DNA of 64,000 nucleotides from Cyclobacteriaceae bacterium (GCA_050250195.1 JBFWPC010000011.1:8164-72163); one strand, 5' to 3'; counted from the stretch's first letter, positions 2,943 through 27,245 are shown. Program-made: numbers and translations. Notes: a model not told the origin generated them from the sequence alone.

Positions 2943-3146
2943 TCAGTAAAGGTAGTTAAATAACTGCAGTTAAATAGGGGTTTTATATGCCAGCTATTAC
3001 TTCATAGCCATCAAAAGCCAAGCGGTTGGGTTAGTGGAAAAAAATCTTGTTCGGATAGCAACTGCGCACGGATGACCATCCCTCAATCCCTACCCACAAC
3101 ATCCGCGCCAGTGTGGGGGCATCCTTGCAGGACACTCTGCACTGAA

Positions 3147-3758
3147 TTAATGATTAGAAGCCTTAGCTAGTGTTTCGGAGAATGGTATTTGTGAATATTT
3201 TAGAAAGACCTTATCCGGATACGAAAAATTTAGAACGCATTCTGATTCGTTTTTAAGGGCACGACCTTGAACATCTCTCAATTGCTCCTTTTTAAGGACT
3301 GCCCCTCCCTTCTTATCGTAATAAACGACCTTTTCAGATACTAATGGGTCTTCGCTACAGTTGGAGTCGAAAAAAGTAATCTTCTTCTTGTAAGCAATCG
3401 TATTTCCATCTCTGTCAAAATAATGAGAAACTGTGACTCGGTAATCCCCGGATTCAATAAACGGTACTCCAATGAGTGCAATCACTTTATTTTCCCTAAA
3501 AACGACATTATACATATAGTTATACCGTTTGTCATTCATACTGTCCAATGAATAAACTCTTTGAGGCATCGAACTCATTGACGATTGAGTAAATATTTTT
3601 ACAGCACCTAAATCTTTGTTTTGAACTAATTCTTGGGTAAGAGAGATAATTTTATCAGCCTTGTCAATTCTGTTTTGGGAGGAACCGGTACATGCCATCA
3701 AACAAAAACCAAAATGCACGAATACAATAAAGACCCAGTTTCTGCGGCTATTTTTCAT
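3147..3758 (-). CDS. lipoprotein, putative immunity protein for the orphan CT2 toxin
   Basis: 203 aa with signal peptide and lipobox (FGFCLMAC). The start overlaps the CT2 stop by 11 nt. AT-rich composition, typical of Rhs tip/immunity cassettes. Confidence 0.7.
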   Translation of the reverse strand: MKNSRRNWVFIVFVHFGFCLMACTGSSQNRIDKADKIISLTQELVQNKDLGAVKIFTQSSMSSMPQRVYSLDSMNDKRYNYMYNVVFRENKVIALIGVPFIESGDYRVTVSHYFDRDGNTIAYKKKITFFDSNCSEDPLVSEKVVYYDKKGGAVLKKEQLRDVQGRALKNESECVLNFSYPDKVFLKYSQIPFSETLAKASNH

Positions 3759-4524
3759 CCTCTTTCTTCTTGACAGTTATGGTTTCAGTTCTTTTCACTT
3801 TTGTATCATCAACAGTCTTGTTAGTACTACCATCAACCTGTGTTTGATTAGCGTCACGGATTGATTTAAAGTTTTCATCAGTACCCCTCTTGTCGATATG
3901 GACTCTGTCAGGATCATTGAAATCTCCTCCATATCTCCAATCTTTTTCTTTTACTTTCTTGATGAATGCATGATCTGATTTCAGATTCTTATTCTTTGAT
4001 TCTAATCCCTTCGAGACATCGTTATCCGTGTAAATGTTGAAATCTATAGCAAGCCCAGCATTATGGGGACTATTCCCAGCGGAAGCTGGTGTAATCGCAT
4101 CCTTGCTTCCACCCAGTTCTTCTTGCTTTTTATTTGTTCTAAATGAACTATTAATGTGTATATAAGTTCCTGTTTCAACCGCATCCCCAAGTATATCTTG
4201 AACATCACTAAAAATTGTGTGATCAATGTACACTGTACTCTCTCCTTTAATATATCCAGATTCATCATTAATCGTTACTTTGATAAGGCTATCCCCTTTA
4301 TGATCAATAAATATTAATGGATTATTAGCTCCATACTGATAAGGATTAATTGGGTAATACTTTTCTGAGAATCTATCTGGAGTAAAAAACCTTCCGATTT
4401 CTGGTAAATACATCCTAGCCCCGTAGTCTAACCAATCAATTCCTAGCTCATCCTGCTTCTCTTTTCCATTGTAGAGGTATTGATTAGCAACCGAGTTCTC
4501 TCTCTGGTACGAGTTAAACGTCAA
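3748..4524 (-). CDS. orphan (displaced) Rhs C-terminal cassette CT2: RHS-associated core domain plus VanY/M15-like (LAS) peptidase toxin domain
   Basis: It begins inside the conserved Rhs motif (YYPFGL)TFNSYQRENS...YGARMYLPEIGRFFTPD. There is no ATG (TTG in the track). The C-terminal half has SPHNAGLAID (SxHxxGxAxD) and DRVHID motifs typical of M15 D-Ala-D-Ala carboxypeptidase-like enzymes. Confidence 0.75.
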   Translation of the reverse strand: MTFNSYQRENSVANQYLYNGKEKQDELGIDWLDYGARMYLPEIGRFFTPDRFSEKYYPINPYQYGANNPLIFIDHKGDSLIKVTINDESGYIKGESTVYIDHTIFSDVQDILGDAVETGTYIHINSSFRTNKKQEELGGSKDAITPASAGNSPHNAGLAIDFNIYTDNDVSKGLESKNKNLKSDHAFIKKVKEKDWRYGGDFNDPDRVHIDKRGTDENFKSIRDANQTQVDGSTNKTVDDTKVKRTETITVKKKEDEK

Positions 4525-4539
4525 ACCAAATGGATAATA
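4507..4539. repeat. att-like site A (gtacgagttaaaCgtcaaAccaaatggataata); the minus strand encodes YYPFGLTFNSY
   Basis: It differs at 2 positions (4519, 4525) from the identical copies at 12621-12653 and 20735-20767. The element sequence starts at 4540. Confidence 0.85.
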
Positions 4540-4744
4540 AACTACACCACTTTTCCGACACCTTCACAGACCCCCTGCAGCACCTTTTCAAAGAACTTTT
4601 TGCAAGTCATAACTCGCAGGTTAAAGATAGGTTTTTCTTCTTTCAATTGAAAAAAAGAAAGGCCGAGTTCCGAGGCATTTTTGTGGACAAAAATACATCT
4701 TGCTGCTGCCCATTTCCGGCAGCTTACAAAGCAAAAAGAGAAGC

Positions 4745-4924
4745 TCAGGGCTTCTCCTTTATGGACTTCACTTCATCGGCAAAAACGGTTGCTACCTTTT
4801 CGTCCTGCAGGTCGGGGAACTCCTGTTTTACGGCTTCTACTTCCTGGTCATTGAGCAACCGGGCTTCTCCGTTATCATCGTTGTGGATCGCCCATCCGTT
4901 GGAGTACTTTCTGATGTAATACAT
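4745..4924 (-). CDS. small hypothetical protein (59 aa) next to the element end
   Basis: Hand translation gives MYYIRKYSNGWAIHNDDNGEARLLNDQEVEAVKQEFPDLQDEKVATVFADEVKSIKEKP*. It falls below the ORF-track cutoff and runs in the same direction as the integrases. No family recognised. Confidence 0.45.
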   Translation of the reverse strand: MYYIRKYSNGWAIHNDDNGEARLLNDQEVEAVKQEFPDLQDEKVATVFADEVKSIKEKP

Positions 4925-5015
4925 AGCTGATTTGGTTTAGAGTTTAAAAGACATTTCCTAAAAGAAAAAACAGAAAAAAAGAAAGCGCTTCATCCAGGTG
5001 GCGGGGCAGACGGAA

Positions 5016-5660
5016 GCAAGGTTTTTGAAGAAAAAATTTTTACCCCTTATCAATCAAGCACATCAAAAATTTTTTCTTCAAAACCCGCAGGGCTTGACCT
5101 TGCTTGCGGCTGAACCGTCCACCTACCTTTGTGCGTCTTTTTTTGATGTTGTCTTTACCTGTATTTCACTTCCGGCATCCAGCCGGTTTTAACAACACAC
5201 CTGGCTATCCGATGAACTTTCCTACAACGCTCCATCACGGTGAGTACCCATGCGCGCCCGAGCAGGCGTACGGGGGTTGCGGGGGGAGCCTGCGAGGAAC
5301 AAGGCGCGCACGAACAATGGGGCATGGCTGGCGACCGCTTTCCCCCCGCAAAAAATTTCCGCCAGCCATGACCGTGCAAGCACAAGTTGTGAAGCGAGTG
5401 GAATGACTGAGGCACGAAGGAATGGAACGTCCGAGGTACACAAGGCATGACAAAAGCGTAATGGAAGTAGGTAAAATAAATGTTCATCAATCAACGTGGT
5501 GGCGGTGTGACGAAGCAAACACCTTTTTCTTTTTCAACTGAAGTTTACTTTGGCACACGGCCACACCATTCGTCCATTTATTTTACTTACTGTAATGAAG
5601 CTTTTGGCGTGACTTGTGTTCCGAGGCCTGAACAACTTGTGCGCAGCACTCCGCTTCTAC
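5016..5660. repeat. structured non-coding region: nested inverted repeats and GC-rich hairpins (candidate ncRNA, ori or recombination arm region)
   Basis: A perfect 19-bp inverted repeat lies at 5023-5041/5065-5083. An 8-bp GC inverted repeat lies at 5251-5258/5303-5310, with an inner gcaggc/gcctgc pair. An 11-bp perfect inverted repeat lies at 5323-5333/5360-5370. Imperfect 52-nt arms at 5431-5482/5575-5626 match at about 39/52 positions. The outer pair is 5380-5390/5632-5642. Confidence 0.6.
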
Positions 5661-5725
5661 CTTGAGGCATGCCGAAGGATGCCAGGCGAGGGTCGGTATG
5701 TGCGCGGGAAGCAGGGTCGGCCGGA

Positions 5726-6613
5726 TCACTGCAATGGATGGTACTTCCTGAGTTGCTCTTGCAGATCTTCTAAATGGGTGGCCTGATATTTTTCCGTGGT
5801 ACTGACGTATTTGTGTCCGCTCATGTATTGAACGACTCGTATATCATTCTTTCGTGTCCACTCGGCTATCGTGCTGGCTCTGATCTGACTGGCATGTTTT
5901 ACCTTCTCATGTTTCAATCGCTTCATCATCCAACCAACTTCTCCGGCAAGTCTTGTCGCTCCTTCCATACCAATGATCAGTTGTTTGATCTTCTCCGGAT
6001 CAGTCACTTTTGGCCCGTATAAAATCCGGTTCCTTGTCTTGTTCAAGTACTCTTGCAACTCAAACACCTGGCTTGCTTCCAGCTTCAATACCCTTTCATT
6101 CGTCCGGTCTGTCCCAGGGATTTTTATTTTTCCTTCCCGTAAGTTGATGTGCCGTGGTTCGAGTAGTTCAAGTTCTTCTATCGTCACAGCCTGGAAGATT
6201 AGTAAGCTAAGTATTACTTTGTTCCGTTGATCTCTGATATCGGTTACCTGATAATTTTCGTACAACTTCATCAGCTCGTCATACTCAACCAGGTCATGGG
6301 GTAATCTCCTGGCTATGCCTCTGATGTAAACGCCTTGTGCCGGATTGCTTTTTACCTTCCACGTCTTTACCAGGTAATGGAAGTAATGCCGTATCGCCAA
6401 TAACTGATGTTGAACGTTGGTTTTACTTTTACCTTTTTTATGACTGTATTTGATATAGTTCATCAGGTCTGCATAGCGGATGTTCTCGACCGGATAGTGA
6501 TGTTTGTCTATCCACTCCAAAAATTCCTTGATCCCATTCTCGTAAATCCGGATTGTACTTTCTGAGAACTCTTTTCCCGTTAAGTAGTCTTTAAAGCTTT
6601 TCATGGATGACAT
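5726..6613 (-). CDS. tyrosine recombinase/integrase paralog B, with apparently degenerate active-site boxes
   Basis: 295 aa with an N-terminal SAM-like domain. The C-terminus has ...SQIRASTIA...GHKYVSTTEKY. Box I reads AVTIEEL where GLRxxEL is expected. Confidence 0.8.
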   Translation of the reverse strand: MSSMKSFKDYLTGKEFSESTIRIYENGIKEFLEWIDKHHYPVENIRYADLMNYIKYSHKKGKSKTNVQHQLLAIRHYFHYLVKTWKVKSNPAQGVYIRGIARRLPHDLVEYDELMKLYENYQVTDIRDQRNKVILSLLIFQAVTIEELELLEPRHINLREGKIKIPGTDRTNERVLKLEASQVFELQEYLNKTRNRILYGPKVTDPEKIKQLIIGMEGATRLAGEVGWMMKRLKHEKVKHASQIRASTIAEWTRKNDIRVVQYMSGHKYVSTTEKYQATHLEDLQEQLRKYHPLQ

Positions 6614-7487
6614 GGGTATAAATTTGTGTTGCTTCCAGTGAACGGTGTCCTAAAAATTTTGCAATGTGCGCCAGCTTCATTCCGCTTTGCAAAAGATGTG
6701 TAGCAATGCTGTGCCGTAATGTATGTAAGCCGATATCCTTTTCGATCTTCGATAACCTGGCAAGTCTTCTCAACCGGATCAGTAAACTTTGTCCTCGTAT
6801 GCGATAGCCTTTGTCACTGACTAGCAATGCAGGGATTTTGTTTCTGGTCATCAAAAATGGTCTGCTGTGATCCAGGTAATCTTTGATGTGCTGCAGGGTT
6901 GTTTCACCTGCCGGCACGTATCGTTCCTTGTAGTTCTTTCCTTTTCGCACATACACGAGCTGGCTGTTAAAATCTATGTCGCTTACATCGAGCTGCACCC
7001 CTTCATTTCTTCTTAAACCACAACCGTAAAAAATTCCCAGCATCACCTTATCACGCAAGCCAAGTACACTTCCGTCCGTGGCTTTGTAAAGCTCTTTCAC
7101 TTCGGCTGTGGTCAGGATATCAGGCACGTGTCGTTTCTCCGGGAGTCGCTCGGTCTCCACTGTAAAGCTTCCTCGATCGGTTTGTCTCACGAACTGGCTC
7201 AGCAAGACCAGGGCCTGGTGATATTTGTTGATGTGACCAGTGCTTAGCTTTCCGCCATGTTTGGCATGTGGCCGCTTCTTCAGTTGAAAAATAAAATCGT
7301 GAACGTGTTGTGCTGTTATCTCCCGGACTTTCTTGACCTCTTCACTTTCCAGCCAGTGAAAAAATTCGTGCATGTACAGTGGCATGTTGTACACGGTGTT
7401 TTCGGCATAGCCTAACAGTGCAAGCCATTCTTTAAAGTCGAGTTCCAGCTCACGGTATGCATAGGTATTCAAGGGTAGATTTTTCAT
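6591..7487 (-). CDS. tyrosine recombinase/integrase A (canonical catalytic residues)
   Basis: 298 aa with GCGLRRNE (box I Arg), HTLRHSIATHLL, GHRSLEATQIYTH (His/Tyr). It overlaps integrase B by 23 nt. Confidence 0.9.
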   Translation of the reverse strand: MKNLPLNTYAYRELELDFKEWLALLGYAENTVYNMPLYMHEFFHWLESEEVKKVREITAQHVHDFIFQLKKRPHAKHGGKLSTGHINKYHQALVLLSQFVRQTDRGSFTVETERLPEKRHVPDILTTAEVKELYKATDGSVLGLRDKVMLGIFYGCGLRRNEGVQLDVSDIDFNSQLVYVRKGKNYKERYVPAGETTLQHIKDYLDHSRPFLMTRNKIPALLVSDKGYRIRGQSLLIRLRRLARLSKIEKDIGLHTLRHSIATHLLQSGMKLAHIAKFLGHRSLEATQIYTHVIHEKL

Positions 7488-7540
7488 GCTACTTGGTTTA
7501 TGGTTAGTAAAAATTTTGGATTCTCCTTATACACCCTTTC

Positions 7541-7645
7541 TGGGACGCGGGACGCCAGACACGTTTTCTTCATTTGCTGATTGTTCTGGCCGATTCTTGC
7601 CTGTTCTGGCGTCCCATCTGGCGTCCCAGGTGTTTGGGACGCCAA
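7541..7645. promoter_or_regulatory. iteron-like cluster of GGGACGC(C)/GGCGTCCC motifs between primase-helicase and integrase A
   Basis: gggacgc is at 7542 and gggacgcc at 7549. tggcgtccc is at about 7607 and 7618. gggacgcc is at 7636. ttctggc is also repeated. That makes five motif copies within about 100 bp. Confidence 0.55.
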
Positions 7646-7647
7646 GA

Positions 7648-10260
7648 CTAAACTGTAATTAACTCAAGCTGATCAAGCTGGCCTTGCAGGTGTCTCTTTA
7701 CTTTCGCGCGAAGCGCTTGTATGTTGTCCCAGTAAAGTACTTTGTAGTTAAAGCCTCTGTTGATGTATCCTCCGGCCTGCCGGATGTATTCCAGGGCCAA
7801 CAGGTCTTGTATGTAGCGGTGCAACTGGCTCTTGCTGATGTGTAGTGCCTGCCTGATCTCTCGCTGGTTAAACTCGTAGCTTTGGTAATGACTGTTGCCT
7901 TTCGTTTTGACATACTGCTTTAATCGTTCATAAAACTGCCGCAAGCTTCCGTCCAGTTCATCCACCTTCAGCACAATGCTTTCAAACATGATCTCGGCTG
8001 CTATTTGAAGATCTTCTTTCTCGCTGATCAATCGACCTTGTGCATCGGTCTTTCGCTGGTATTGATGTAGTAAAGTGATTTGCTTCACAAACGCCTGGTA
8101 CAAGCCGTTCAGCCTTCTGATCTTGTGCGCTTCTTCCGGAAGATGAACTTTGTCAGCATAGGGATTGATCACCTGGCACGGCTTTAAAAGTCTGATGCAA
8201 TGCTGTAAAAATTCCGTGATCTGCTGCTCTCTCTTTTCATCGATCTGGCCAGCGCTCTTTTTGTTTTGATACTGGATGATCTTAATCGTCTGCTCGTGGC
8301 TTTCATCTACAGCAATCAAAAAACAACGGCTCATGTTGTCTTCGTATATCTCGCCTTTGGTAGTACAAGCCATCGATGCAATCGGGCCGTAAACGATTCG
8401 CTCGTAAGCATTCACGTTGCCGTGTTCGTCTTTGCTGGATGTGCTGCTAATGATCACACCTTTGCTTTGCAGCTCTCTAAAGGCAAGCTGCGCTTCTTCC
8501 TTCATCCCGTCCAGGTCTTCGATGCAGATCAATTGATGGCTCAGGTCATACATGCCGTAATTGTACAAGCTGCCTTCCGTCACTCTTGTAAATGCTTTCC
8601 TGCCTTCCTTCGGTATGAAGCTCGAGACCTTTGCCAGTAGATGTGTCTTTCCCGATCCGCTCGAGCCCTGGATAAGCGCGTGCAGTGTCTCCGGCATTTT
8701 ATAGCTCGATGCAATGCCGAACAAAAAAATACGGTTCGTTTCTTCACCAACTACTCCGGCCTGGCCGATCAGGTCGTTGAGTCTCCTGATCAGGTTGGGC
8801 TTACTCAAAAACTCTTTGCATTTGCCTTCCAGGTGTAACGGTACTTGTATGCCTTGTGAGGTTGCGGGTTCTTTGTTCTGGCTTTGCTTTTCCCGGTGTG
8901 CTTCCAATAAGCTGGTAAGCTCTTCCAAATCGAGTTGTATCATATCGGCACGCAAGCCAAGCTTATCGCTTGCATCCCTGGCCAGCTTATCTACTTGCTT
9001 ATCTTCGTACAGATCAATCTTGCTGCGGCTCTTTCTTCCGTTCTGTGGATGCTCGATATCAAGGCTTACGCGCAGGGATTCAAAGTTGCCGTGCAGCTCA
9101 CCTTTGATGTGATAGTTTGCTGTGGCTGTTCTGTACAAAAAACGATGGGGGAAGATTTCAAGCTTGTAGCTGTTCGTTGGTGTAGCCGTGCTTTTACTTT
9201 CAACTCTCCCTGGGACTCCTTCCGGAGAAAAAATGACAACTCGCTTCTCGATCAGGTGTGTAAAGATTTCTTTCTCATGTGCCTGCGCCAGGCTGTTCAC
9301 ATCTTCACCTTCTGGTGTGTTCACCTGGCTAATCGTGATATCCTTTCTGATCTCCTGGAGCTTTGCTGTTACTTTCTTTGTCCCTTCTCTTCCGGCTTCA
9401 TCACCGTCAAAAAATAAAATCACTTCTTCAAGGTGCTTCAGTTCCCTGATCGCTTGCTCATGTTCCTGGATAAATCCATTCGTTCCATAGCAGGCCAATA
9501 CGGTGTATTCGCTTGTGATCGTTGTTAGCTGATGCAAGGTGGCCGCATCAATGATCGCTTCTGTTAAGATCAGCTTCTTTGTCTCCGCTCCTGGATAAGC
9601 AGGATAAAGGCCCTGGTGTGGACCGGGTAAGTAGTAATGTTTGCCGGTCCCGGGATCCTCACTTACGCTGCGGCCATAGATCCCCACCGTGTGGCCTTGA
9701 ACATTTTGCAGGGCGAACACCAAACAGTTTTTGAAGCGATTGAGGTAACGCCCGTCCTGTGTTTTGCTGATCAATCCAATTGCTGCAGCGCTTTCCTTAT
9801 ACTGCTTGTTCCAGCCCTCCGGTACTTTCTCCCCAGTGAAGCCAAGCTTTAATGTCTGCCAGTCTAATCCTCTTCCAGTGGCGTATACTCTCGCACGTTC
9901 TCCGTTAGACATTCCTTTCCGGCATCCTTCCAGGTAACGGGCAAGAACGGCAACCCTGCTAAGTTCTTCCGGTTGATTTGCTTTCGTTTCAATAAAGCCA
10001 AGCAATGACTTGGCTTTCAGGATCGCTTCACGTTTCGTGCTCTTCTCCATTAACCGGATAAACTCGATCACATCTCCTGTGCCGGCTTTGCAATTGGATG
10101 AGAAGCAACAAAAGGTATTGGTCTGCGGATAGATTTGAAGGGAAGGCGTCTTGTCGTTATGGAAGGGACAGCAAAGCATGTTATTCTTGTCTGTGCTCAG
10201 GCTGTAGTGATCGAGCACCTGGCTGATGGTGAGCTGCTGTTTGATCTCAGCTATTTCCAT
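7648..10260 (-). CDS. DNA primase / P-loop NTPase (helicase-like) replication protein
   Basis: 870 aa. It has an N-terminal CHC2 zinc finger (CCPFHNDKTPSL...CCFSSNC) and a Toprim motif (LFFDGDEAGREG). It also has Walker A (GSSGSGKTHLL), Walker B (LICIEDLDG) and a C-terminal wHTH-like tail. Confidence 0.85.
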   Translation of the reverse strand: MEIAEIKQQLTISQVLDHYSLSTDKNNMLCCPFHNDKTPSLQIYPQTNTFCCFSSNCKAGTGDVIEFIRLMEKSTKREAILKAKSLLGFIETKANQPEELSRVAVLARYLEGCRKGMSNGERARVYATGRGLDWQTLKLGFTGEKVPEGWNKQYKESAAAIGLISKTQDGRYLNRFKNCLVFALQNVQGHTVGIYGRSVSEDPGTGKHYYLPGPHQGLYPAYPGAETKKLILTEAIIDAATLHQLTTITSEYTVLACYGTNGFIQEHEQAIRELKHLEEVILFFDGDEAGREGTKKVTAKLQEIRKDITISQVNTPEGEDVNSLAQAHEKEIFTHLIEKRVVIFSPEGVPGRVESKSTATPTNSYKLEIFPHRFLYRTATANYHIKGELHGNFESLRVSLDIEHPQNGRKSRSKIDLYEDKQVDKLARDASDKLGLRADMIQLDLEELTSLLEAHREKQSQNKEPATSQGIQVPLHLEGKCKEFLSKPNLIRRLNDLIGQAGVVGEETNRIFLFGIASSYKMPETLHALIQGSSGSGKTHLLAKVSSFIPKEGRKAFTRVTEGSLYNYGMYDLSHQLICIEDLDGMKEEAQLAFRELQSKGVIISSTSSKDEHGNVNAYERIVYGPIASMACTTKGEIYEDNMSRCFLIAVDESHEQTIKIIQYQNKKSAGQIDEKREQQITEFLQHCIRLLKPCQVINPYADKVHLPEEAHKIRRLNGLYQAFVKQITLLHQYQRKTDAQGRLISEKEDLQIAAEIMFESIVLKVDELDGSLRQFYERLKQYVKTKGNSHYQSYEFNQREIRQALHISKSQLHRYIQDLLALEYIRQAGGYINRGFNYKVLYWDNIQALRAKVKRHLQGQLDQLELITV

Positions 10261-10429
10261 TGGCTGTCGGTTTAATGGTGATCTCCTGGTCTTTCACTGT
10301 GATCTGAACTTGCTCTCCAATCTTGAAGCCGGATTGTTCCAACCATTGGCCAATCAATCGGACTTCGGGTACTGCTTTCTTGTCGTTGCTGCGGTAAGAG
10401 TGGTAAACTTTCAGCTTGCGGTCTGCCAT
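10247..10429 (-). CDS. SymE/AbrB-fold (SpoVT-AbrB-like) small protein
   Basis: 60 aa. The segment VPEVRLIGQWLEQSGFKIGEQVQITVKDQEITI matches the SymE-toxin/AbrB swapped-hairpin pattern. It overlaps the primase start by 14 nt. Confidence 0.6.
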   Translation of the reverse strand: MADRKLKVYHSYRSNDKKAVPEVRLIGQWLEQSGFKIGEQVQITVKDQEITIKPTANGNS

Positions 10430-10570
10430 GAAAATTTTTTTCTGTTGTGTAACATCTGCAACAAAAGTAGAACTTGTTCGGATTTTTCAAAACGAATACC
10501 TTCTTTTTTTGTAGAACACATTAAACTAAATTCGCCAAAATCAGTTGTAAAACTTAATCTTTAGCAGAAC
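10430..10570. promoter_or_regulatory. divergent promoter/operator region between the SymE-like/primase operon and the XRE gene
   Basis: 141-bp AT-rich gap between divergent genes. GTAGAAC is repeated at 10467 and 10511, with GCAGAAC at 10564. A short inverted repeat ttgttg...caacaa lies at about 10444-10466. Confidence 0.4.
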
Positions 10571-10906
10571 ATGGTCAACATTGGGGAGCGGATTACTGAG
10601 CTCAGGAAGCGGAAAAACTGGTCGCAAAGCGATTTGGCTGAAGCCATCGGGGCTTCCAGGGATATCATTGGCAAGTACGAACGTAATGAGAACAGCCCTT
10701 CTGTGGAGATGGCGGTAAAAATTGCCAAGGCCTTTGATGTTCCGGTGGACTACCTACTTGGTGAAGGTAAGCACGCTTCGTACAGCAAAGAGACTGTGAA
10801 GCGCATTGAGGAAATTGAGTCCATGGATGACAAAACCAGGTCTGTCCTGTTTAATCTCATTGATACTTATATCCGCGATGCAAAGGCGCGTAAAGCTTAT
10901 AGTTGA
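10571..10906 (+). CDS. XRE-family helix-turn-helix transcriptional regulator
   Basis: 111 aa. IGERITELRKRKNWSQSDLAEAIGASRDIIGKYERNENSPSVEMAVKIAKAF is a typical Cro/C1 HTH. Confidence 0.9.
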   Translation: MVNIGERITELRKRKNWSQSDLAEAIGASRDIIGKYERNENSPSVEMAVKIAKAFDVPVDYLLGEGKHASYSKETVKRIEEIESMDDKTRSVLFNLIDTYIRDAKARKAYS

Positions 10907-11121
10907 TGAGCACTGCTTCTCTTGTTAACTCTGCCGGCCTGGTCATTGACATCATCGGTGCGCTGATGATCTTTCTAAATTCTCCCAAGCTGGAAGCCAC
11001 TGCCTTTATCGGTGCCACTGCTGACGATCCTGTTGTCAACCGAAGAAACAAAATCGCTAAGTATGGAATGGGCGTGATTATGATCGGGTTTGCTTTCCAA
11101 CTCGTCAGCAATTTCTTATAA
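10903..11121 (+). CDS. small two-TM membrane protein, translationally coupled to the XRE gene
   Basis: 72 aa with two hydrophobic helices. Its ATGA start overlaps the XRE stop. Confidence 0.55.
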   Translation: MMSTASLVNSAGLVIDIIGALMIFLNSPKLEATAFIGATADDPVVNRRNKIAKYGMGVIMIGFAFQLVSNFL

Positions 11122-11157
11122 AGAAAAAACCTAGCGATTAGGCTGGGCTTCTAAGTT

Positions 11158-11694
11158 TTAGTATGTGTATGTCTTTATGAGCTTACCTTTTTTGCTATAC
11201 TTCTTAACGGTACGTAATTTGCCGTCCGGATAATAAAATTTCAGCTTTCCAATCGGAATACCTTCTTTAAAAAATCCCTCAACCCTCTTATTACCATTTT
11301 CATAGTAATCAATTTGAGTACCCTCGCATTTCTGATCACAGCAACAATAACCAATGAAGTTAGGATGCGATGTTGGTTCAAGGCATGAACTAACTCTTAT
11401 AAGACGAAGTGTGTCACTAAAATTTTCAATTGATTTTACATCAAACTTTTTCCCAAGTTCAGTGCTATCAATTTTTCCAATCACATAAGATAGAACATAT
11501 GTACCAGTATCCTTCAATATGAGAACACCAGTGGTATCTTGGGTATTGAAAGCAATTCCATCCTTTTTTAGTCCAAAAAAATCAATCCTCCTGACCTCCT
11601 TTGAGCAAGGATCATAGCCATAAAGGTTAAAATTTATTTGACCGAAAGCGGAAAAACAGATTATCAAAAAAGTCAAAGTCAAAATGCTTCTCAT
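11158..11694 (-). CDS. secreted MORN/YwqK-like repeat protein, putative immunity to CT1 (copy in element 1)
   Basis: 178 aa with a signal peptide. The C-terminus YYENGNKRVEGFFKEGIPIGKLKFYYPDGKL resembles YwqK-family antitoxin repeats. Its ATGA start overlaps the CT1 stop. Confidence 0.7.
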   Translation of the reverse strand: MRSILTLTFLIICFSAFGQINFNLYGYDPCSKEVRRIDFFGLKKDGIAFNTQDTTGVLILKDTGTYVLSYVIGKIDSTELGKKFDVKSIENFSDTLRLIRVSSCLEPTSHPNFIGYCCCDQKCEGTQIDYYENGNKRVEGFFKEGIPIGKLKFYYPDGKLRTVKKYSKKGKLIKTYTY

Positions 11695-12638
11695 CTATTT
11701 GGTTGGTAGTAGGTAGTTCCATTAAACCTAAATGCCTGTCTCGTTAACCCAGACAATCGAGTCAGCTCGTATTGATTCATTTGACTTAACGGCCTTCCTT
11801 GATAACTATAATTATTTACATCCACGGGGCCGGTAGGCAAACTTTTATATCTATCTGGCAAAGAGTTCACCCCGTTTGCGCCTGGCTCACTACTTCCAAA
11901 AAGTGCTTGTCGTTGATAGCCGGCCACTTCATCATGTTTATCAAGTAAAAAAGGAGCACCAAGTCTACCTTGTGAGCCTAGACTAATTTGTCCGGTCTCA
12001 AACTGATAGCCGTGTTTCAGTTCGTGAGCAAAAAGCCCAAGTCCTGCATTAGATGAGATCGTGATGTCAACGGCACCTGTACCAAAATTAAATGAGGTGG
12101 CAGCTACTGTATTTCCCATGCCCGATATTGGCCCGTTTTCATTTAACGAGGAACTTTCAACTACATTATACACTTGACTTGATGCCGCCATCGTTCCTAT
12201 TTCCCCCCGCGTTTCTTCAAGTGCCTGGTTATTAGATTCAAGTCTACCAATTTGTCTATTGAGGCGATTAGTTTGTTTCTCTGAAAGTCCACCTGCTGCA
12301 AGTGCTTCTCGTTTCTCTCCAATCTTTTCATTGTTCCGTTCCTGTCTGCTGTTGATATCAGCGACCAATCGATTAACCCATGCCCATGCTGCTTCTGTAA
12401 ACTCCATCCCATTGGGGTCTATGTAGCGTATCGGATTGTTTGCCATCGCTACATAAGGAGACATACTGTAAAACTTCTCCGCAAGTGGATCAGGACTCCA
12501 CCAACGACCGTCCGATGGATCGTACATCCTTGCACCAAAATCGTATGTATCCAAGTCAAGGCCATCTTGGATTTCTTTGCTTTGATACAAGTACTTGTTT
12601 TCAGCTGAGTTTTCGCGAGAGTACGAGTTAAATGTCAA
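11691..12638 (-). pseudogene. promoterless orphan copy of Rhs tip CT1 (RHS core domain plus HExxH toxin), identical to the tip of the full-length Rhs
   Basis: The translation is identical to the last 315 aa of the 2477-aa Rhs. The in-frame upstream sequence hits TGA 10 codons before the first Tyr of YYPFGL (L*RCRKSGVVYYPFGL). There is no ATG. Confidence 0.8.
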
Positions 12639-12653
12639 TCCAAATGGATAATA
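12621..12653. repeat. att-like site B (gtacgagttaaatgtcaatccaaatggataata)
   Basis: Identical to site C at 20735-20767. It forms the junction between the two element copies. Confidence 0.85.
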
Positions 12654-12858
12654 AACTACACCACTTTTCCGACACCTTCACAGACCCCCTGCAGCACCTT
12701 TTCAAAGAACTTTTTGCAAGTCATAACTCGCAGGTTAAAGATAGGTTTTTCTTCTTTCAATTGAAAAAAAGAAAGGCCGAGTTCCGAGGCATTTTTGTGG
12801 ACAAAAATACATCTTGCTGCTGCCCATTTCCGGCAGCTTACAAAGCAAAAAGAGAAGC

Positions 12859-13038
12859 TCAGGGCTTCTCCTTTATGGACTTCACTTCATCGGCAAAAAC
12901 GGTTGCTACCTTTTCGTCCTGCAGGTCGGGGAACTCCTGTTTTACGGCTTCTACTTCCTGGTCATTGAGCAACCGGGCTTCTCCGTTATCATCGTTGTGG
13001 ATCGCCCATCCGTTGGAGTACTTTCTGATGTAATACAT
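12859..13038 (-). CDS. small hypothetical protein (59 aa), copy 2
   Basis: Same sequence as 4745-4924 at +8114. Confidence 0.45.
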   Translation of the reverse strand: MYYIRKYSNGWAIHNDDNGEARLLNDQEVEAVKQEFPDLQDEKVATVFADEVKSIKEKP

Positions 13039-13129
13039 AGCTGATTTGGTTTAGAGTTTAAAAGACATTTCCTAAAAGAAAAAACAGAAAAAAAGAAAGC
13101 GCTTCATCCAGGTGGCGGGGCAGACGGAA

Positions 13130-13774
13130 GCAAGGTTTTTGAAGAAAAAATTTTTACCCCTTATCAATCAAGCACATCAAAAATTTTTTCTTCAAAACCC
13201 GCAGGGCTTGACCTTGCTTGCGGCTGAACCGTCCACCTACCTTTGTGCGTCTTTTTTTGATGTTGTCTTTACCTGTATTTCACTTCCGGCATCCAGCCGG
13301 TTTTAACAACACACCTGGCTATCCGATGAACTTTCCTACAACGCTCCATCACGGTGAGTACCCATGCGCGCCCGAGCAGGCGTACGGGGGTTGCGGGGGG
13401 AGCCTGCGAGGAACAAGGCGCGCACGAACAATGGGGCATGGCTGGCGACCGCTTTCCCCCCGCAAAAAATTTCCGCCAGCCATGACCGTGCAAGCACAAG
13501 TTGTGAAGCGAGTGGAATGACTGAGGCACGAAGGAATGGAACGTCCGAGGTACACAAGGCATGACAAAAGCGTAATGGAAGTAGGTAAAATAAATGTTCA
13601 TCAATCAACGTGGTGGCGGTGTGACGAAGCAAACACCTTTTTCTTTTTCAACTGAAGTTTACTTTGGCACACGGCCACACCATTCGTCCATTTATTTTAC
13701 TTACTGTAATGAAGCTTTTGGCGTGACTTGTGTTCCGAGGCCTGAACAACTTGTGCGCAGCACTCCGCTTCTAC
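13130..13774. repeat. structured non-coding region, copy 2
   Basis: Same sequence as 5016-5660 at +8114. Confidence 0.6.
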
Positions 13775-13839
13775 CTTGAGGCATGCCGAAGGATGCCAGG
13801 CGAGGGTCGGTATGTGCGCGGGAAGCAGGGTCGGCCGGA

Positions 13840-14727
13840 TCACTGCAATGGATGGTACTTCCTGAGTTGCTCTTGCAGATCTTCTAAATGGGTGGCCTGA
13901 TATTTTTCCGTGGTACTGACGTATTTGTGTCCGCTCATGTATTGAACGACTCGTATATCATTCTTTCGTGTCCACTCGGCTATCGTGCTGGCTCTGATCT
14001 GACTGGCATGTTTTACCTTCTCATGTTTCAATCGCTTCATCATCCAACCAACTTCTCCGGCAAGTCTTGTCGCTCCTTCCATACCAATGATCAGTTGTTT
14101 GATCTTCTCCGGATCAGTCACTTTTGGCCCGTATAAAATCCGGTTCCTTGTCTTGTTCAAGTACTCTTGCAACTCAAACACCTGGCTTGCTTCCAGCTTC
14201 AATACCCTTTCATTCGTCCGGTCTGTCCCAGGGATTTTTATTTTTCCTTCCCGTAAGTTGATGTGCCGTGGTTCGAGTAGTTCAAGTTCTTCTATCGTCA
14301 CAGCCTGGAAGATTAGTAAGCTAAGTATTACTTTGTTCCGTTGATCTCTGATATCGGTTACCTGATAATTTTCGTACAACTTCATCAGCTCGTCATACTC
14401 AACCAGGTCATGGGGTAATCTCCTGGCTATGCCTCTGATGTAAACGCCTTGTGCCGGATTGCTTTTTACCTTCCACGTCTTTACCAGGTAATGGAAGTAA
14501 TGCCGTATCGCCAATAACTGATGTTGAACGTTGGTTTTACTTTTACCTTTTTTATGACTGTATTTGATATAGTTCATCAGGTCTGCATAGCGGATGTTCT
14601 CGACCGGATAGTGATGTTTGTCTATCCACTCCAAAAATTCCTTGATCCCATTCTCGTAAATCCGGATTGTACTTTCTGAGAACTCTTTTCCCGTTAAGTA
14701 GTCTTTAAAGCTTTTCATGGATGACAT
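13840..14727 (-). CDS. tyrosine recombinase paralog B, copy 2
   Basis: Translation identical to 5726-6613. Confidence 0.8.
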   Translation of the reverse strand: MSSMKSFKDYLTGKEFSESTIRIYENGIKEFLEWIDKHHYPVENIRYADLMNYIKYSHKKGKSKTNVQHQLLAIRHYFHYLVKTWKVKSNPAQGVYIRGIARRLPHDLVEYDELMKLYENYQVTDIRDQRNKVILSLLIFQAVTIEELELLEPRHINLREGKIKIPGTDRTNERVLKLEASQVFELQEYLNKTRNRILYGPKVTDPEKIKQLIIGMEGATRLAGEVGWMMKRLKHEKVKHASQIRASTIAEWTRKNDIRVVQYMSGHKYVSTTEKYQATHLEDLQEQLRKYHPLQ

Positions 14728-15601
14728 GGGTATAAATTTGTGTTGCTTCCAGTGAACGGTGTCCTAAAAATTTTGCAATGTGCGCCAGCTTCATTCCGCT
14801 TTGCAAAAGATGTGTAGCAATGCTGTGCCGTAATGTATGTAAGCCGATATCCTTTTCGATCTTCGATAACCTGGCAAGTCTTCTCAACCGGATCAGTAAA
14901 CTTTGTCCTCGTATGCGATAGCCTTTGTCACTGACTAGCAATGCAGGGATTTTGTTTCTGGTCATCAAAAATGGTCTGCTGTGATCCAGGTAATCTTTGA
15001 TGTGCTGCAGGGTTGTTTCACCTGCCGGCACGTATCGTTCCTTGTAGTTCTTTCCTTTTCGCACATACACGAGCTGGCTGTTAAAATCTATGTCGCTTAC
15101 ATCGAGCTGCACCCCTTCATTTCTTCTTAAACCACAACCGTAAAAAATTCCCAGCATCACCTTATCACGCAAGCCAAGTACACTTCCGTCCGTGGCTTTG
15201 TAAAGCTCTTTCACTTCGGCTGTGGTCAGGATATCAGGCACGTGTCGTTTCTCCGGGAGTCGCTCGGTCTCCACTGTAAAGCTTCCTCGATCGGTTTGTC
15301 TCACGAACTGGCTCAGCAAGACCAGGGCCTGGTGATATTTGTTGATGTGACCAGTGCTTAGCTTTCCGCCATGTTTGGCATGTGGCCGCTTCTTCAGTTG
15401 AAAAATAAAATCGTGAACGTGTTGTGCTGTTATCTCCCGGACTTTCTTGACCTCTTCACTTTCCAGCCAGTGAAAAAATTCGTGCATGTACAGTGGCATG
15501 TTGTACACGGTGTTTTCGGCATAGCCTAACAGTGCAAGCCATTCTTTAAAGTCGAGTTCCAGCTCACGGTATGCATAGGTATTCAAGGGTAGATTTTTCA
15601 T
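14705..15601 (-). CDS. tyrosine recombinase/integrase A, copy 2
   Basis: Translation identical to 6591-7487. Confidence 0.9.
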   Translation of the reverse strand: MKNLPLNTYAYRELELDFKEWLALLGYAENTVYNMPLYMHEFFHWLESEEVKKVREITAQHVHDFIFQLKKRPHAKHGGKLSTGHINKYHQALVLLSQFVRQTDRGSFTVETERLPEKRHVPDILTTAEVKELYKATDGSVLGLRDKVMLGIFYGCGLRRNEGVQLDVSDIDFNSQLVYVRKGKNYKERYVPAGETTLQHIKDYLDHSRPFLMTRNKIPALLVSDKGYRIRGQSLLIRLRRLARLSKIEKDIGLHTLRHSIATHLLQSGMKLAHIAKFLGHRSLEATQIYTHVIHEKL

Positions 15602-15654
15602 GCTACTTGGTTTATGGTTAGTAAAAATTTTGGATTCTCCTTATACACCCTTTC

Positions 15655-15759
15655 TGGGACGCGGGACGCCAGACACGTTTTCTTCATTTGCTGATTGTTC
15701 TGGCCGATTCTTGCCTGTTCTGGCGTCCCATCTGGCGTCCCAGGTGTTTGGGACGCCAA
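15655..15759. promoter_or_regulatory. GGGACGCC iteron-like cluster, copy 2
   Basis: Same sequence as 7541-7645 at +8114. Confidence 0.55.
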
Positions 15760-15761
15760 GA

Positions 15762-18374
15762 CTAAACTGTAATTAACTCAAGCTGATCAAGCTGGCCTTG
15801 CAGGTGTCTCTTTACTTTCGCGCGAAGCGCTTGTATGTTGTCCCAGTAAAGTACTTTGTAGTTAAAGCCTCTGTTGATGTATCCTCCGGCCTGCCGGATG
15901 TATTCCAGGGCCAACAGGTCTTGTATGTAGCGGTGCAACTGGCTCTTGCTGATGTGTAGTGCCTGCCTGATCTCTCGCTGGTTAAACTCGTAGCTTTGGT
16001 AATGACTGTTGCCTTTCGTTTTGACATACTGCTTTAATCGTTCATAAAACTGCCGCAAGCTTCCGTCCAGTTCATCCACCTTCAGCACAATGCTTTCAAA
16101 CATGATCTCGGCTGCTATTTGAAGATCTTCTTTCTCGCTGATCAATCGACCTTGTGCATCGGTCTTTCGCTGGTATTGATGTAGTAAAGTGATTTGCTTC
16201 ACAAACGCCTGGTACAAGCCGTTCAGCCTTCTGATCTTGTGCGCTTCTTCCGGAAGATGAACTTTGTCAGCATAGGGATTGATCACCTGGCACGGCTTTA
16301 AAAGTCTGATGCAATGCTGTAAAAATTCCGTGATCTGCTGCTCTCTCTTTTCATCGATCTGGCCAGCGCTCTTTTTGTTTTGATACTGGATGATCTTAAT
16401 CGTCTGCTCGTGGCTTTCATCTACAGCAATCAAAAAACAACGGCTCATGTTGTCTTCGTATATCTCGCCTTTGGTAGTACAAGCCATCGATGCAATCGGG
16501 CCGTAAACGATTCGCTCGTAAGCATTCACGTTGCCGTGTTCGTCTTTGCTGGATGTGCTGCTAATGATCACACCTTTGCTTTGCAGCTCTCTAAAGGCAA
16601 GCTGCGCTTCTTCCTTCATCCCGTCCAGGTCTTCGATGCAGATCAATTGATGGCTCAGGTCATACATGCCGTAATTGTACAAGCTGCCTTCCGTCACTCT
16701 TGTAAATGCTTTCCTGCCTTCCTTCGGTATGAAGCTCGAGACCTTTGCCAGTAGATGTGTCTTTCCCGATCCGCTCGAGCCCTGGATAAGCGCGTGCAGT
16801 GTCTCCGGCATTTTATAGCTCGATGCAATGCCGAACAAAAAAATACGGTTCGTTTCTTCACCAACTACTCCGGCCTGGCCGATCAGGTCGTTGAGTCTCC
16901 TGATCAGGTTGGGCTTACTCAAAAACTCTTTGCATTTGCCTTCCAGGTGTAACGGTACTTGTATGCCTTGTGAGGTTGCGGGTTCTTTGTTCTGGCTTTG
17001 CTTTTCCCGGTGTGCTTCCAATAAGCTGGTAAGCTCTTCCAAATCGAGTTGTATCATATCGGCACGCAAGCCAAGCTTATCGCTTGCATCCCTGGCCAGC
17101 TTATCTACTTGCTTATCTTCGTACAGATCAATCTTGCTGCGGCTCTTTCTTCCGTTCTGTGGATGCTCGATATCAAGGCTTACGCGCAGGGATTCAAAGT
17201 TGCCGTGCAGCTCACCTTTGATGTGATAGTTTGCTGTGGCTGTTCTGTACAAAAAACGATGGGGGAAGATTTCAAGCTTGTAGCTGTTCGTTGGTGTAGC
17301 CGTGCTTTTACTTTCAACTCTCCCTGGGACTCCTTCCGGAGAAAAAATGACAACTCGCTTCTCGATCAGGTGTGTAAAGATTTCTTTCTCATGTGCCTGC
17401 GCCAGGCTGTTCACATCTTCACCTTCTGGTGTGTTCACCTGGCTAATCGTGATATCCTTTCTGATCTCCTGGAGCTTTGCTGTTACTTTCTTTGTCCCTT
17501 CTCTTCCGGCTTCATCACCGTCAAAAAATAAAATCACTTCTTCAAGGTGCTTCAGTTCCCTGATCGCTTGCTCATGTTCCTGGATAAATCCATTCGTTCC
17601 ATAGCAGGCCAATACGGTGTATTCGCTTGTGATCGTTGTTAGCTGATGCAAGGTGGCCGCATCAATGATCGCTTCTGTTAAGATCAGCTTCTTTGTCTCC
17701 GCTCCTGGATAAGCAGGATAAAGGCCCTGGTGTGGACCGGGTAAGTAGTAATGTTTGCCGGTCCCGGGATCCTCACTTACGCTGCGGCCATAGATCCCCA
17801 CCGTGTGGCCTTGAACATTTTGCAGGGCGAACACCAAACAGTTTTTGAAGCGATTGAGGTAACGCCCGTCCTGTGTTTTGCTGATCAATCCAATTGCTGC
17901 AGCGCTTTCCTTATACTGCTTGTTCCAGCCCTCCGGTACTTTCTCCCCAGTGAAGCCAAGCTTTAATGTCTGCCAGTCTAATCCTCTTCCAGTGGCGTAT
18001 ACTCTCGCACGTTCTCCGTTAGACATTCCTTTCCGGCATCCTTCCAGGTAACGGGCAAGAACGGCAACCCTGCTAAGTTCTTCCGGTTGATTTGCTTTCG
18101 TTTCAATAAAGCCAAGCAATGACTTGGCTTTCAGGATCGCTTCACGTTTCGTGCTCTTCTCCATTAACCGGATAAACTCGATCACATCTCCTGTGCCGGC
18201 TTTGCAATTGGATGAGAAGCAACAAAAGGTATTGGTCTGCGGATAGATTTGAAGGGAAGGCGTCTTGTCGTTATGGAAGGGACAGCAAAGCATGTTATTC
18301 TTGTCTGTGCTCAGGCTGTAGTGATCGAGCACCTGGCTGATGGTGAGCTGCTGTTTGATCTCAGCTATTTCCAT
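15762..18374 (-). CDS. DNA primase / P-loop NTPase replication protein, copy 2
   Basis: Translation identical to 7648-10260. Confidence 0.85.
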   Translation of the reverse strand: MEIAEIKQQLTISQVLDHYSLSTDKNNMLCCPFHNDKTPSLQIYPQTNTFCCFSSNCKAGTGDVIEFIRLMEKSTKREAILKAKSLLGFIETKANQPEELSRVAVLARYLEGCRKGMSNGERARVYATGRGLDWQTLKLGFTGEKVPEGWNKQYKESAAAIGLISKTQDGRYLNRFKNCLVFALQNVQGHTVGIYGRSVSEDPGTGKHYYLPGPHQGLYPAYPGAETKKLILTEAIIDAATLHQLTTITSEYTVLACYGTNGFIQEHEQAIRELKHLEEVILFFDGDEAGREGTKKVTAKLQEIRKDITISQVNTPEGEDVNSLAQAHEKEIFTHLIEKRVVIFSPEGVPGRVESKSTATPTNSYKLEIFPHRFLYRTATANYHIKGELHGNFESLRVSLDIEHPQNGRKSRSKIDLYEDKQVDKLARDASDKLGLRADMIQLDLEELTSLLEAHREKQSQNKEPATSQGIQVPLHLEGKCKEFLSKPNLIRRLNDLIGQAGVVGEETNRIFLFGIASSYKMPETLHALIQGSSGSGKTHLLAKVSSFIPKEGRKAFTRVTEGSLYNYGMYDLSHQLICIEDLDGMKEEAQLAFRELQSKGVIISSTSSKDEHGNVNAYERIVYGPIASMACTTKGEIYEDNMSRCFLIAVDESHEQTIKIIQYQNKKSAGQIDEKREQQITEFLQHCIRLLKPCQVINPYADKVHLPEEAHKIRRLNGLYQAFVKQITLLHQYQRKTDAQGRLISEKEDLQIAAEIMFESIVLKVDELDGSLRQFYERLKQYVKTKGNSHYQSYEFNQREIRQALHISKSQLHRYIQDLLALEYIRQAGGYINRGFNYKVLYWDNIQALRAKVKRHLQGQLDQLELITV

Positions 18375-18543
18375 TGGCTGTCGGTTTAATGGTGATCTCC
18401 TGGTCTTTCACTGTGATCTGAACTTGCTCTCCAATCTTGAAGCCGGATTGTTCCAACCATTGGCCAATCAATCGGACTTCGGGTACTGCTTTCTTGTCGT
18501 TGCTGCGGTAAGAGTGGTAAACTTTCAGCTTGCGGTCTGCCAT
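18361..18543 (-). CDS. SymE/AbrB-fold small protein, copy 2
   Basis: Translation identical to 10247-10429. Confidence 0.6.
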   Translation of the reverse strand: MADRKLKVYHSYRSNDKKAVPEVRLIGQWLEQSGFKIGEQVQITVKDQEITIKPTANGNS

Positions 18544-18684
18544 GAAAATTTTTTTCTGTTGTGTAACATCTGCAACAAAAGTAGAACTTGTTCGGATTTT
18601 TCAAAACGAATACCTTCTTTTTTTGTAGAACACATTAAACTAAATTCGCCAAAATCAGTTGTAAAACTTAATCTTTAGCAGAAC

Positions 18685-19020
18685 ATGGTCAACATTGGGG
18701 AGCGGATTACTGAGCTCAGGAAGCGGAAAAACTGGTCGCAAAGCGATTTGGCTGAAGCCATCGGGGCTTCCAGGGATATCATTGGCAAGTACGAACGTAA
18801 TGAGAACAGCCCTTCTGTGGAGATGGCGGTAAAAATTGCCAAGGCCTTTGATGTTCCGGTGGACTACCTACTTGGTGAAGGTAAGCACGCTTCGTACAGC
18901 AAAGAGACTGTGAAGCGCATTGAGGAAATTGAGTCCATGGATGACAAAACCAGGTCTGTCCTGTTTAATCTCATTGATACTTATATCCGCGATGCAAAGG
19001 CGCGTAAAGCTTATAGTTGA
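18685..19020 (+). CDS. XRE-family HTH regulator, copy 2
   Basis: Translation identical to 10571-10906. Confidence 0.9.
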   Translation: MVNIGERITELRKRKNWSQSDLAEAIGASRDIIGKYERNENSPSVEMAVKIAKAFDVPVDYLLGEGKHASYSKETVKRIEEIESMDDKTRSVLFNLIDTYIRDAKARKAYS

Positions 19021-19235: not shown

Positions 19236-19271
19236 AGAAAAAACCTAGCGATTAGGCTGGGCTTCTAAGTT

Positions 19272-27238: not shown

Positions 27239-27245
27239 TGCGATA

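Follow-up and report, generated by a model that had tools for sequence, protein, structure and literature searches.

Junction sites of a tandem 8,114-bp element inside an Rhs toxin gene of a Cyclobacteriaceae bacterium, and a proposed recombinase-borne route of Rhs C-terminal displacement

How does an Rhs toxin gene obtain a new C-terminal toxin tip while the old tip stays behind as an orphan? This question is raised by a stretch of 64,000 nt from a metagenome-assembled genome (MAG) of a Cyclobacteriaceae bacterium, called the window here, in which a displaced Rhs tip (tip A), two perfect copies of an 8,114-bp unit carrying another tip (tip B) and a large Rhs gene follow one another and meet at three related sites, A, B and C. 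All coordinates are window positions, and the sites are on the minus strand. We consider it highly probable that the unit is an integrative element, of which two copies lie head to tail within the Rhs gene, with A as the left attachment site (attL), C as the right one (attR) and B as a reconstituted element site (attP) at the dimer junction.

The three junction sites and the bounds of the exchange

The features on which the comparison of the sites was based are as follows.

3748 to 4539, minus strand: displaced tip A, an orphan, with an RHS-associated core domain and an M15/VanY-type peptidase toxin
4526 to 4539, minus strand: core of site A (full site 4507 to 4539), read as attL; displaced tip A, core, element end
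4540 to 12653, minus strand: element copy 1, 8,114 bp, delimited by the perfect repeat and the Logan unitig (8,128 bp, 4526 to 12653); its boundary within the core is arbitrary
12640 to 12653, minus strand: core of site B, read as attP-type; tip B, core, element end; joins the two tandem copies
12654 to 20767, minus strand: element copy 2, 8,114 bp, its tip B fused in frame to the Rhs body
20754 to 20767, minus strand: core of site C, read as attR; tip B, core, Rhs body; in frame within the 2,477-aa Rhs open reading frame (ORF)
19805 to 27238, minus strand: Rhs gene, 2,477 aa, with DUF6443 and Ig_7; its last 320 codons (YYPFGL to stop) are the element-derived tip B

The three sites were aligned with about 120 bp of flank on each side, and every base that a first-pass annotation had given for the junctions was found in place. 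Sites B (12621-12653) and C (20735-20767) were identical base by base, site A (4507-4539) differed from them only at 4519 (C vs T) and 4525 (A vs T), and CCAAATGGATAATA was common to all three (4526-4539, 12640-12653 and 20754-20767). To the right of this core, A and B continued into AACTACACC and C into CTCATCACTC. The core reads TAT TAT CCA TTT GG on the minus strand and encodes Y Y P F G, and the changes at 4519 and 4525 are synonymous, at third codon positions (ACG/ACA for Thr and GGT/GGA for Gly, respectively, on the minus strand). With up to one mismatch allowed, CCAAATGGATAATA was found at these three sites only in the 64 kb, against 0.02 occurrences expected from shuffles.

Positions 4526-12653 and 12640-20767 were 100% identical, an 8,128-bp stretch repeated with a period of 8,114 bp as a perfect tandem repeat. 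Because both B and C lie in this repeat, their identity is trivial and is not independent evidence. The flank of site A to the right of 4539 was the same as that to the right of 12653, and site B had the left flank of C and the right flank of A. The identity of the 14 bp is itself partly to be expected from the conservation of the YYPFG codons alone, so the crossover is bounded by the pattern of flanking differences and not by identity as such. Site A has the bases of tip A at 4519 and 4525 and those of the element from 4540; site C has the bases of tip B on its left and those of the Rhs body from 20768. Because the flanking bases of A and C switch origin across the core, the exchange is placed within 4526-4539, assuming no change after integration. 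This pattern supports the earlier proposal of a crossover in a 14-bp core inside the YYPFGL codons, and the bases of tip-A type at the two mismatches are those expected if they were inherited from the chromosomal tip side, as had also been suggested. The first-pass annotation had read the sites as attL/attR hybrids; this stands for A and C, and B is now taken as the reconstituted attP and not as a second hybrid. Reciprocal attL/attR/attP hybrids around a short identical core, here 14 bp, were seen in at least 17 sources.

The 2,477-aa Rhs ORF runs uninterrupted through site C into tip B, and at sites A and B element-end sequence with stop codons precedes the YYPFGL codons. In both tips, residues 1-83 aligned with the model TIGR03696, over all 76 model positions in tip B and over 1-75 in tip A, and the two tips scored 55.6 and 61.9 bits against a cut-off of 32.5, which identifies them as Rhs polymorphic toxin tips. 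Each cassette thus brings its own RHS-associated core domain, in agreement with the first-pass annotation, and because the model aligns from residue 1, YYPFGL marks the start (position 1) of the RHS repeat-associated core domain. The motif IDPNGM, estimated earlier to lie about 75 codons beyond the swap point, begins 77 codons after the first Tyr.

At the position of this DPxG-type motif, tip B has IDPNGM, and tip A and all of its M15-type relatives have ID(H/F)(K/N)GD. The M15/VanY-type tips (window 3748-4539 and proteins P0121-P0132) showed ID(H/F)(K/N)GD, YLPEIG and PDRF throughout, in contrast to the DPxG-type motifs of other tips; from the aligned proteins, this looks like a trait of the tip family and not like orphan decay. 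The toxin part of tip B (19805-20520) matched no toxin family of Pfam or NCBIfam. It contains FAHELKHGYQF with an HExxH motif, which suggests a metallopeptidase. Upstream of the Rhs gene, a 1,149-aa ORF (27238-30695) with a terminal RHS repeat ends 7 bp short of the ATG that opens the 2,477-aa ORF, in another frame; the two are either adjacent genes or one split gene.

Gene content, recombinases and relatives of the element

In coding (minus) orientation, the order of the unit is Rhs tail, immunity gene, helix-turn-helix (HTH) gene on the other strand, primase-helicase, 298-aa recombinase, 295-aa recombinase and end. Its features, together with the gene that follows tip A, are listed below.

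11691 to 12653, minus strand: internal copy of tip B, promoterless, with an RHS-associated core domain and the HExxH toxin; element-end stop codons precede it
11158 to 11694 (copy 2, 19272-19808), minus strand: candidate tip B immunity gene, 178 aa, MORN-like
10571 to 10906 (copy 2, 18685-19020), plus strand: HTH_3 (Cro/CI-type) regulator
7648 to 10260 (copy 2, 15762-18374), minus strand: 870-aa primase-helicase-like protein with a DnaG zinc ribbon and Toprim; AAA and winged-HTH matches weak
6591 to 7487 (copy 2, 14705-15601), minus strand: 298-aa Xer-like tyrosine recombinase with the complete R-K-H-R-H-Y set
5726 to 6613 (copy 2, 13840-14727), minus strand: 295-aa divergent Xer-like paralog, with R-II, H-II and Tyr kept
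4540 to 5725 (copy 2, 12654-13839), minus strand: element end, 1.2 kb, mostly non-coding, with long inverted repeats, a 59-aa ORF and the end motif
3147 to 3758, minus strand: 203-aa ORF directly after tip A, candidate tip A immunity gene by its position alone

The rest of the window contained no additional copies of the Rhs core domain, no element ends and no recombinase genes.

Both recombinases had XerD (1a0p) as their best match. When the 298-aa protein was aligned to XerD, all six R-K-H-R-H-Y residues of tyrosine recombinases were present, and they were invariant in 159 of 159 of its relatives. Against the XerC and XerD equivalog models, with cut-offs of 329.6 and 335.15 bits, the 298-aa protein scored 177 and 173 bits and the 295-aa protein 108 and 115 bits; because these scores are far below the cut-offs and the target is an Rhs codon motif, not dif, the proteins are not regarded as bona fide XerC/XerD. 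A score of 120 bits with the integron-integrase model (cut-off 265), and an inserted unit that is an 8-kb element and not an attC cassette, set the system apart from integrons. Across 139 relatives of the 295-aa protein, the columns of Arg-I (with Thr in the window), Lys and His-I all varied. An invariant Gln was seen three positions before Arg-I. The partner gene was present at 147 of the 159 loci, and its product may be a non-catalytic DNA-binding partner, as judged from these columns. Elements that exploit the Xer system exchange a single strand pair, and the junction is resolved by replication; by analogy, and as speculation, a non-catalytic 295-aa partner might mean that only one strand pair is exchanged here and that replication resolves the junction.

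At its end the element has a conserved motif, GGAAAAGTGGTGTAGTT, that abuts the core. The element ends shared GAAAAA (-16 to -11), G (-8) and AY (-2 to -1); the motif was absent from the Rhs side, where the consensus differs and reflects coding sequence. On the minus strand, the element end has GTGGTGTAG (4548-4556) 4-12 bp from the core and the Rhs body has GTGGTGCAG (20777-20785; Val-Val-Gln codons) at 10-18 bp; the two are identical at 8 of 9 positions with an offset of 6 bp, this was not seen in L064, and the likeness could be chance or a vestige of ancestral Rhs sequence. The non-coding end (window 5002-5622; copy 2, 13116-13736) contains inverted repeats with arms at 5435-5482 and 5575-5622 (79% complementary) and at 5020-5041 and 5065-5086 (an A/T-rich palindrome of 22 nt, 95% complementary), and the 59-aa ORF is accompanied by a terminator-like hairpin at about 4745-4924. 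This end could act as an origin of replication or encode an RNA; no Rfam family matched 3000-13000 at E <= 0.1.

An alignment of the recombinase was scanned for relatives and gave 74 genome loci and 80 metagenome loci, cited by L number where needed. The 298-aa recombinase had thousands of relatives, many of the closest on contigs some 8-9 kb in length. The genome loci are spread over Bacteroidota, including Balneolaceae, and a few records are binned under other phyla. The family was patchy across Cytophagia, Flavobacteriia, Chitinophagia, Saprospiria, Bacteroidia and Balneolaceae and was also found on plasmids, with unrelated tips: 72 unique cargo tips fell into 63 unrelated clusters. Sites at the YYPFG codons with a tip ORF behind them were counted in 60 related loci, in the window and in L001, the Logan unitig of the window itself, which makes 62 sources; every one of the sites runs in the direction of the recombinase, and the other strand had none. 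In at least 17 sources, made up of the window and 16 related loci, one site came after a long Rhs ORF upstream of the recombinase pair and another after element-end sequence downstream of it, and relatives sharing these junction codons had recombinases 41-86% identical to those of the window.

In more distant clades the junction motifs were YGFNGKE (Aureibacter pAT2, L156/L158), YECSNHLGNV (Aureispira plasmid, L157/L159) and GWYDYGAR (a Bacteroidales MAG), and the loci with alternative motifs included L016 and L121, the latter with YGMNGME at its junction. From this comparison, the use of a conserved Rhs coding motif as the bacterial attachment site (attB) appears to be a general principle.

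Stacked arrays were observed in L066 and L067 (Balneolaceae chromosomes), L062/L029, L005 and L040, where two or three different elements or element-end scars lie serially behind one Rhs gene, with a different tip after each; they resemble an integron-like record of successive insertions. The 120 best database relatives of the tip were all 153-461 aa long and started near YYPFGL, with no full-length Rhs protein among them, which points either to a great abundance of cassette-type or orphan tails in metagenomes or to a tendency of contigs to be broken there. The relatives of tip A were almost only short orphan-type ORFs; one had an element-end N-terminus like that in the window and one an Rhs-body N-terminus (P0122). 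A protein database search for the empty attB gave no tip-A relative with the Rhs body of the window.

Away from the element, a 44-nt unit is present twice in tandem (95% identical) at 1207-1294, between a thymidylate synthase gene and a 528-aa ORF that had no family match.

Alternative explanations and the width of the core

The copy number in the window is provisional, since the sequence derives from a MAG and a perfect tandem of 8.1 kb is beyond the resolution of a short-read graph. In the Logan unitig of the same sample (L001), the repeat was collapsed to one 8,128-bp piece, 4526-12653, with a 14-bp terminal overlap. The tandem could accordingly be an assembly artefact in which a single chromosomal copy is present and site B was threaded in from reads of a free circle (attP), and circular-looking contigs of 8.1 kb are known among the relatives: two of them close on themselves and carry an Rhs_assc_core ORF and the recombinase pair, as either free circles or collapsed tandems. 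We regard this artefact as unlikely. The finished isolate plasmids Aureibacter tunicatorum pAT2 and that of Aureispira sp. CCB-E, both found via the primase-helicase, contain an Rhs gene, two element copies with identical protein accessions (by record annotation) and, after copy 2, a displaced tip with small ORFs; near-perfect tandem copies were also found in the complete genome of Aquimarina sp. W85, an Ekhidna MAG chromosome and several long MAG contigs. Since tandem copies recur in finished replicons, a dimer in the window is plausible. The ends of the Logan unitigs coincide with the de Bruijn branch points predicted from A, B and C and give read-level support for junctions A and B; the tip-A unitig (L160 1-30) includes exactly 16 bp of the element end, and no branch is seen in it. 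Junction B must exist in the reads and is an attP junction, dimer or not, and the crossover inference is unaffected because it rests on A and C.

Less probable still is that the unit has been domesticated as a switch under host control, by which the Rhs gene alternates between tip B when the unit is integrated and tip A when it is excised; this would not exclude the integrative element. The att sites are direct repeats, so excision would restore an intact gene of Rhs body and tip A, and the unit contains an HTH regulator and no transfer genes that were found. However, the unit has a replication protein of its own, the family is spread patchily over the taxa named above and on plasmids, with unrelated tips, different elements are stacked in L066, L067 and L062, and an attB junction is not visible in the unitigs of the sample.

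RecA-dependent recombination or unequal crossing-over between Rhs tails, as with the Salmonella main and orphan rhs genes, would make the 14 bp the last stretch of homology, and published accounts of how Rhs C-termini are displaced call on homologous recombination or on illegitimate recombination facilitated by homology (PMC2935791; PMC5361080). Tips A and B do share a homologous region beside the core: going into the tips, the two sequences were identical at 28 of 30 bp, then at 13-19 per 30 bp (about 55%) over about 240 bp and then at random, a level accounted for by the 59% aa identity of the tips over the 82-codon core domain. The crossover lies at the extreme edge of this weak homology, however, and between the Rhs body and the element end there was no homology on the other side of the core. 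The longest exact match was 14 bp, with two mismatches in 33 bp. RecA-type exchange needs a minimum of about 25 bp of identity. The one-sided homology and the 14-bp maximum match therefore argue against RecA. Homology over hundreds of bp, named in the first-pass annotation as the finding that would favour RecA, was sought and not found beyond the one-sided match, weak after 30 bp, and the extended near-identical homology with distributed crossovers of RecA-mediated main/orphan rhs exchange was absent. Since at least 17 sources, whose recombinases are only 41-86% identical to those of the window, share the codons of the junction, and since the element itself has recombinases and a conserved end motif, this explanation is very improbable.

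A target-site duplication of 14 bp by transposase-type insertion, to which the short direct repeat flanking the element might point, can be practically dismissed, since the unit has two tyrosine recombinases and no DDE or other transposase, the tandem junction holds a single 14-bp copy, the element continues the homology of the target past the repeat (28/30 bp) with the frame kept, the same conserved codons are used in many taxa, and no insertions of the family at unrelated sequences with differing 14-bp duplications were seen.

For site-specific exchange by the element, we compared how far the partner sites of different loci are identical. The positions of TAYTAYCCNTTYGG were numbered 1-14, and blocks of identity between partner sites were delimited by differences at wobble positions, as follows.

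Window: 1 to 14
L003: -2 to 11
L064, L132: 1 to 11
L048: 4 to 11
L005, L142: 4 to 14
L040: 7 to 17
L067: 7 to 26
L079, L113: 1 to 8
L059 (Aquimarina, three-way): 10 to 15
L002 (Chryseotalea isolate contig; starts TTTGG, ends in CCGTTTGG): 10 to 14

A single common crossover interval obtained by intersecting the blocks was rejected, as 1-8, 4-11, 7-17 and 10-15 share no position. Since no interval fits all blocks, either mismatches in the exchanged segment are tolerated or the sites drifted later. The wobble position of the Pro codon (position 9) matched in 11 of 14 partner pairs, a small set that is not phylogenetically independent, against an expected fraction of 0.37 (P = 0.002, per-position test), and positions 3, 6, 12 and 15 matched at the level of chance. 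This suggests that the homology-sensitive part is shorter than 14 bp and lies around CCNTT (Pro-Phe codons), with wobble heterology tolerated; going by these alignments, the overlap would fall roughly within positions 4-11. The 14-bp core of the first-pass annotation thus holds as the bound of the exchange in the window, and the part that is sensitive to identity is probably shorter. Dyad symmetry of the arms around the core, judged by eye, gave at most 4 of 11 matches, and the idea was dropped.

Several points weigh against the element as we describe it. Excision, circle formation, the cleavage positions, the protein that cleaves, replication and the origin of the dimer are inferred from sequence. 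The copy number in the window could be an assembler's choice. No attB branch was found in the tip-A unitig of the sample, as expected if the empty attB junction is absent there. No transfer functions (relaxase, capsid) were found among the element proteins. A scan of IMG/VR with the recombinase alignment gave no relatives, so a phage or satellite has no support. Finally, given the lack of a common interval, the narrower core relies on tolerated heterology or later drift, and the partner pairs compared are few and interrelated.

Known systems, the proposed route and its meaning

Islands in tRNA genes and the elements e14 and phage 21 in icd integrate within the 3' portion of a gene and bring along a substitute for that portion. 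As in those systems, the attP of the present element holds the 3' portion of the target, the gene is left intact, the core is short and attL and attR are hybrids; there, however, the same product is restored, whereas here another toxin and immunity protein are brought in and the function of the gene is changed. Integrative mobile elements exploiting Xer (IMEX) such as CTX phage use XerC/XerD, and one partner may be non-catalytic. The adjacent Xer-like pair, the best match to XerD (1a0p) and the simple core site are shared with XerC/XerD and IMEX; the differences are that the recombinases are element-encoded and far below the equivalog cut-offs and that the target is a protein-coding motif and not dif.

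Tandem integration of an integrative element has a published precedent in SGI1 (PMC2297512), likewise a head-to-tail array with an attP-type junction between copies, in an element of another family, target and cargo. The Bacteroides integrase IntDOT of CTnDOT tolerates heterology in part of its overlap (PMC2034462, PMC2817482). It is also a tyrosine recombinase of Bacteroidota, and by analogy such tolerance would explain the wobble mismatches between partner sites; unlike the proteins here, it is the large heterobivalent integrase of a conjugative transposon. Toxin-immunity material is associated with a tyrosine recombinase in Bacteroidota also in the recombinase-associated acquired interbacterial defence (rAID) and polyimmunity loci of Bacteroidales, with a XerD-like recombinase (described in PMC12247911) and, for polyimmunity loci, XerC/D (Zhang et al. 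2012, PMC3482391), and older cassettes build up there in an integron-like manner. The rAID loci differ in being orphan immunity arrays beside one recombinase, outside an Rhs ORF and without a primase-helicase or second recombinase; the rAID-1 arrangement, in which short orphan immunity genes, all in one orientation and with conserved motifs between them, follow a single recombinase, was not found in the unit.

Closest in outcome is Rhs C-terminal displacement with its orphan toxin arrays (Jackson et al. 2009, PMC2935791; Koskiniemi 2014, as cited in PMC5361080). As there, a new tip and immunity gene replace the 3' end of the expressed rhs gene and the old pair stays downstream as an orphan. 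The published route is homologous or illegitimate recombination, whereas here the new tip comes with an 8-kb element that has its own tyrosine recombinases and a core of at most 14 bp; the authors of a study of effector displacement in Vibrio (PMC5361080) stated that they had no evidence of integrase-driven insertion of effector-immunity modules. Full-text literature searches gave no published description of recombinase-borne Rhs tips. One paper combines the terms rhs, primase and tyrosine recombinase for algal chloroplast genomes (PMC4487195), but it bears no relation to the present system.

The anatomy of the locus, the junction pattern, its recurrence across taxa and the catalytic residues were observed directly, and the following route is proposed from them. 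In the attP of the circular element, the element's own end, GGAAAAGTGGTGTAGTT, would be joined to an Rhs tail that has no promoter, starts at YYPFGL and comprises the core domain, the new toxin and the immunity gene. The Xer-like recombinase of the element would carry out an exchange between attP and a chromosomal Rhs gene at the YYPFG codons, which are identical in both; the empty attB is predicted, in coding orientation, as GCCCGGTGGTGCAGAGTGATGAG-TATTATCCATTTGG-TTTGACGTTTAACTCGTACCAGAGAGAG. Catalysis would be by the 298-aa protein with its complete set of residues, probably together with the divergent 295-aa partner. The incoming tail would then be fused in frame to the Rhs body, and the old tail, with its M15 peptidase toxin and immunity gene, would be pushed downstream as an orphan. 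A dimer with an attP junction may arise by integration of a second circle or by attL x attR exchange between sister chromosomes, and the primase-helicase suggests that the excised circle replicates.

On balance we lean, with modest confidence, towards a wider view in which phylum-wide and apparently undescribed self-replicating integrative elements drive Rhs C-terminal displacement in Bacteroidota. These elements would combine a promoterless Rhs tail (core domain, toxin and immunity gene) with a Xer-like pair and use conserved Rhs codons as attB, with clades retargeted to YYPFGL, YGFNGKE, DYGARxYDP or HLGNV; they would typically form tandem dimers and stacked arrays, leave orphan tips behind and tolerate wobble heterology, so that one element enters many Rhs alleles.

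New C-terminal warheads and orphan tips have so far been explained by homologous or illegitimate recombination only. The locus and its relatives offer a defined, testable route for the swap of a toxin warhead, with a short att core, few element proteins and predicted attB and attP sites. If confirmed, it would explain orphan arrays in Bacteroidota and would reveal recombinases that recognise a conserved coding motif and tolerate its wobble positions. It would also mean that a mobile element hijacks the delivery scaffold of its host, with the toxin and immunity protein acting as its own retention device.

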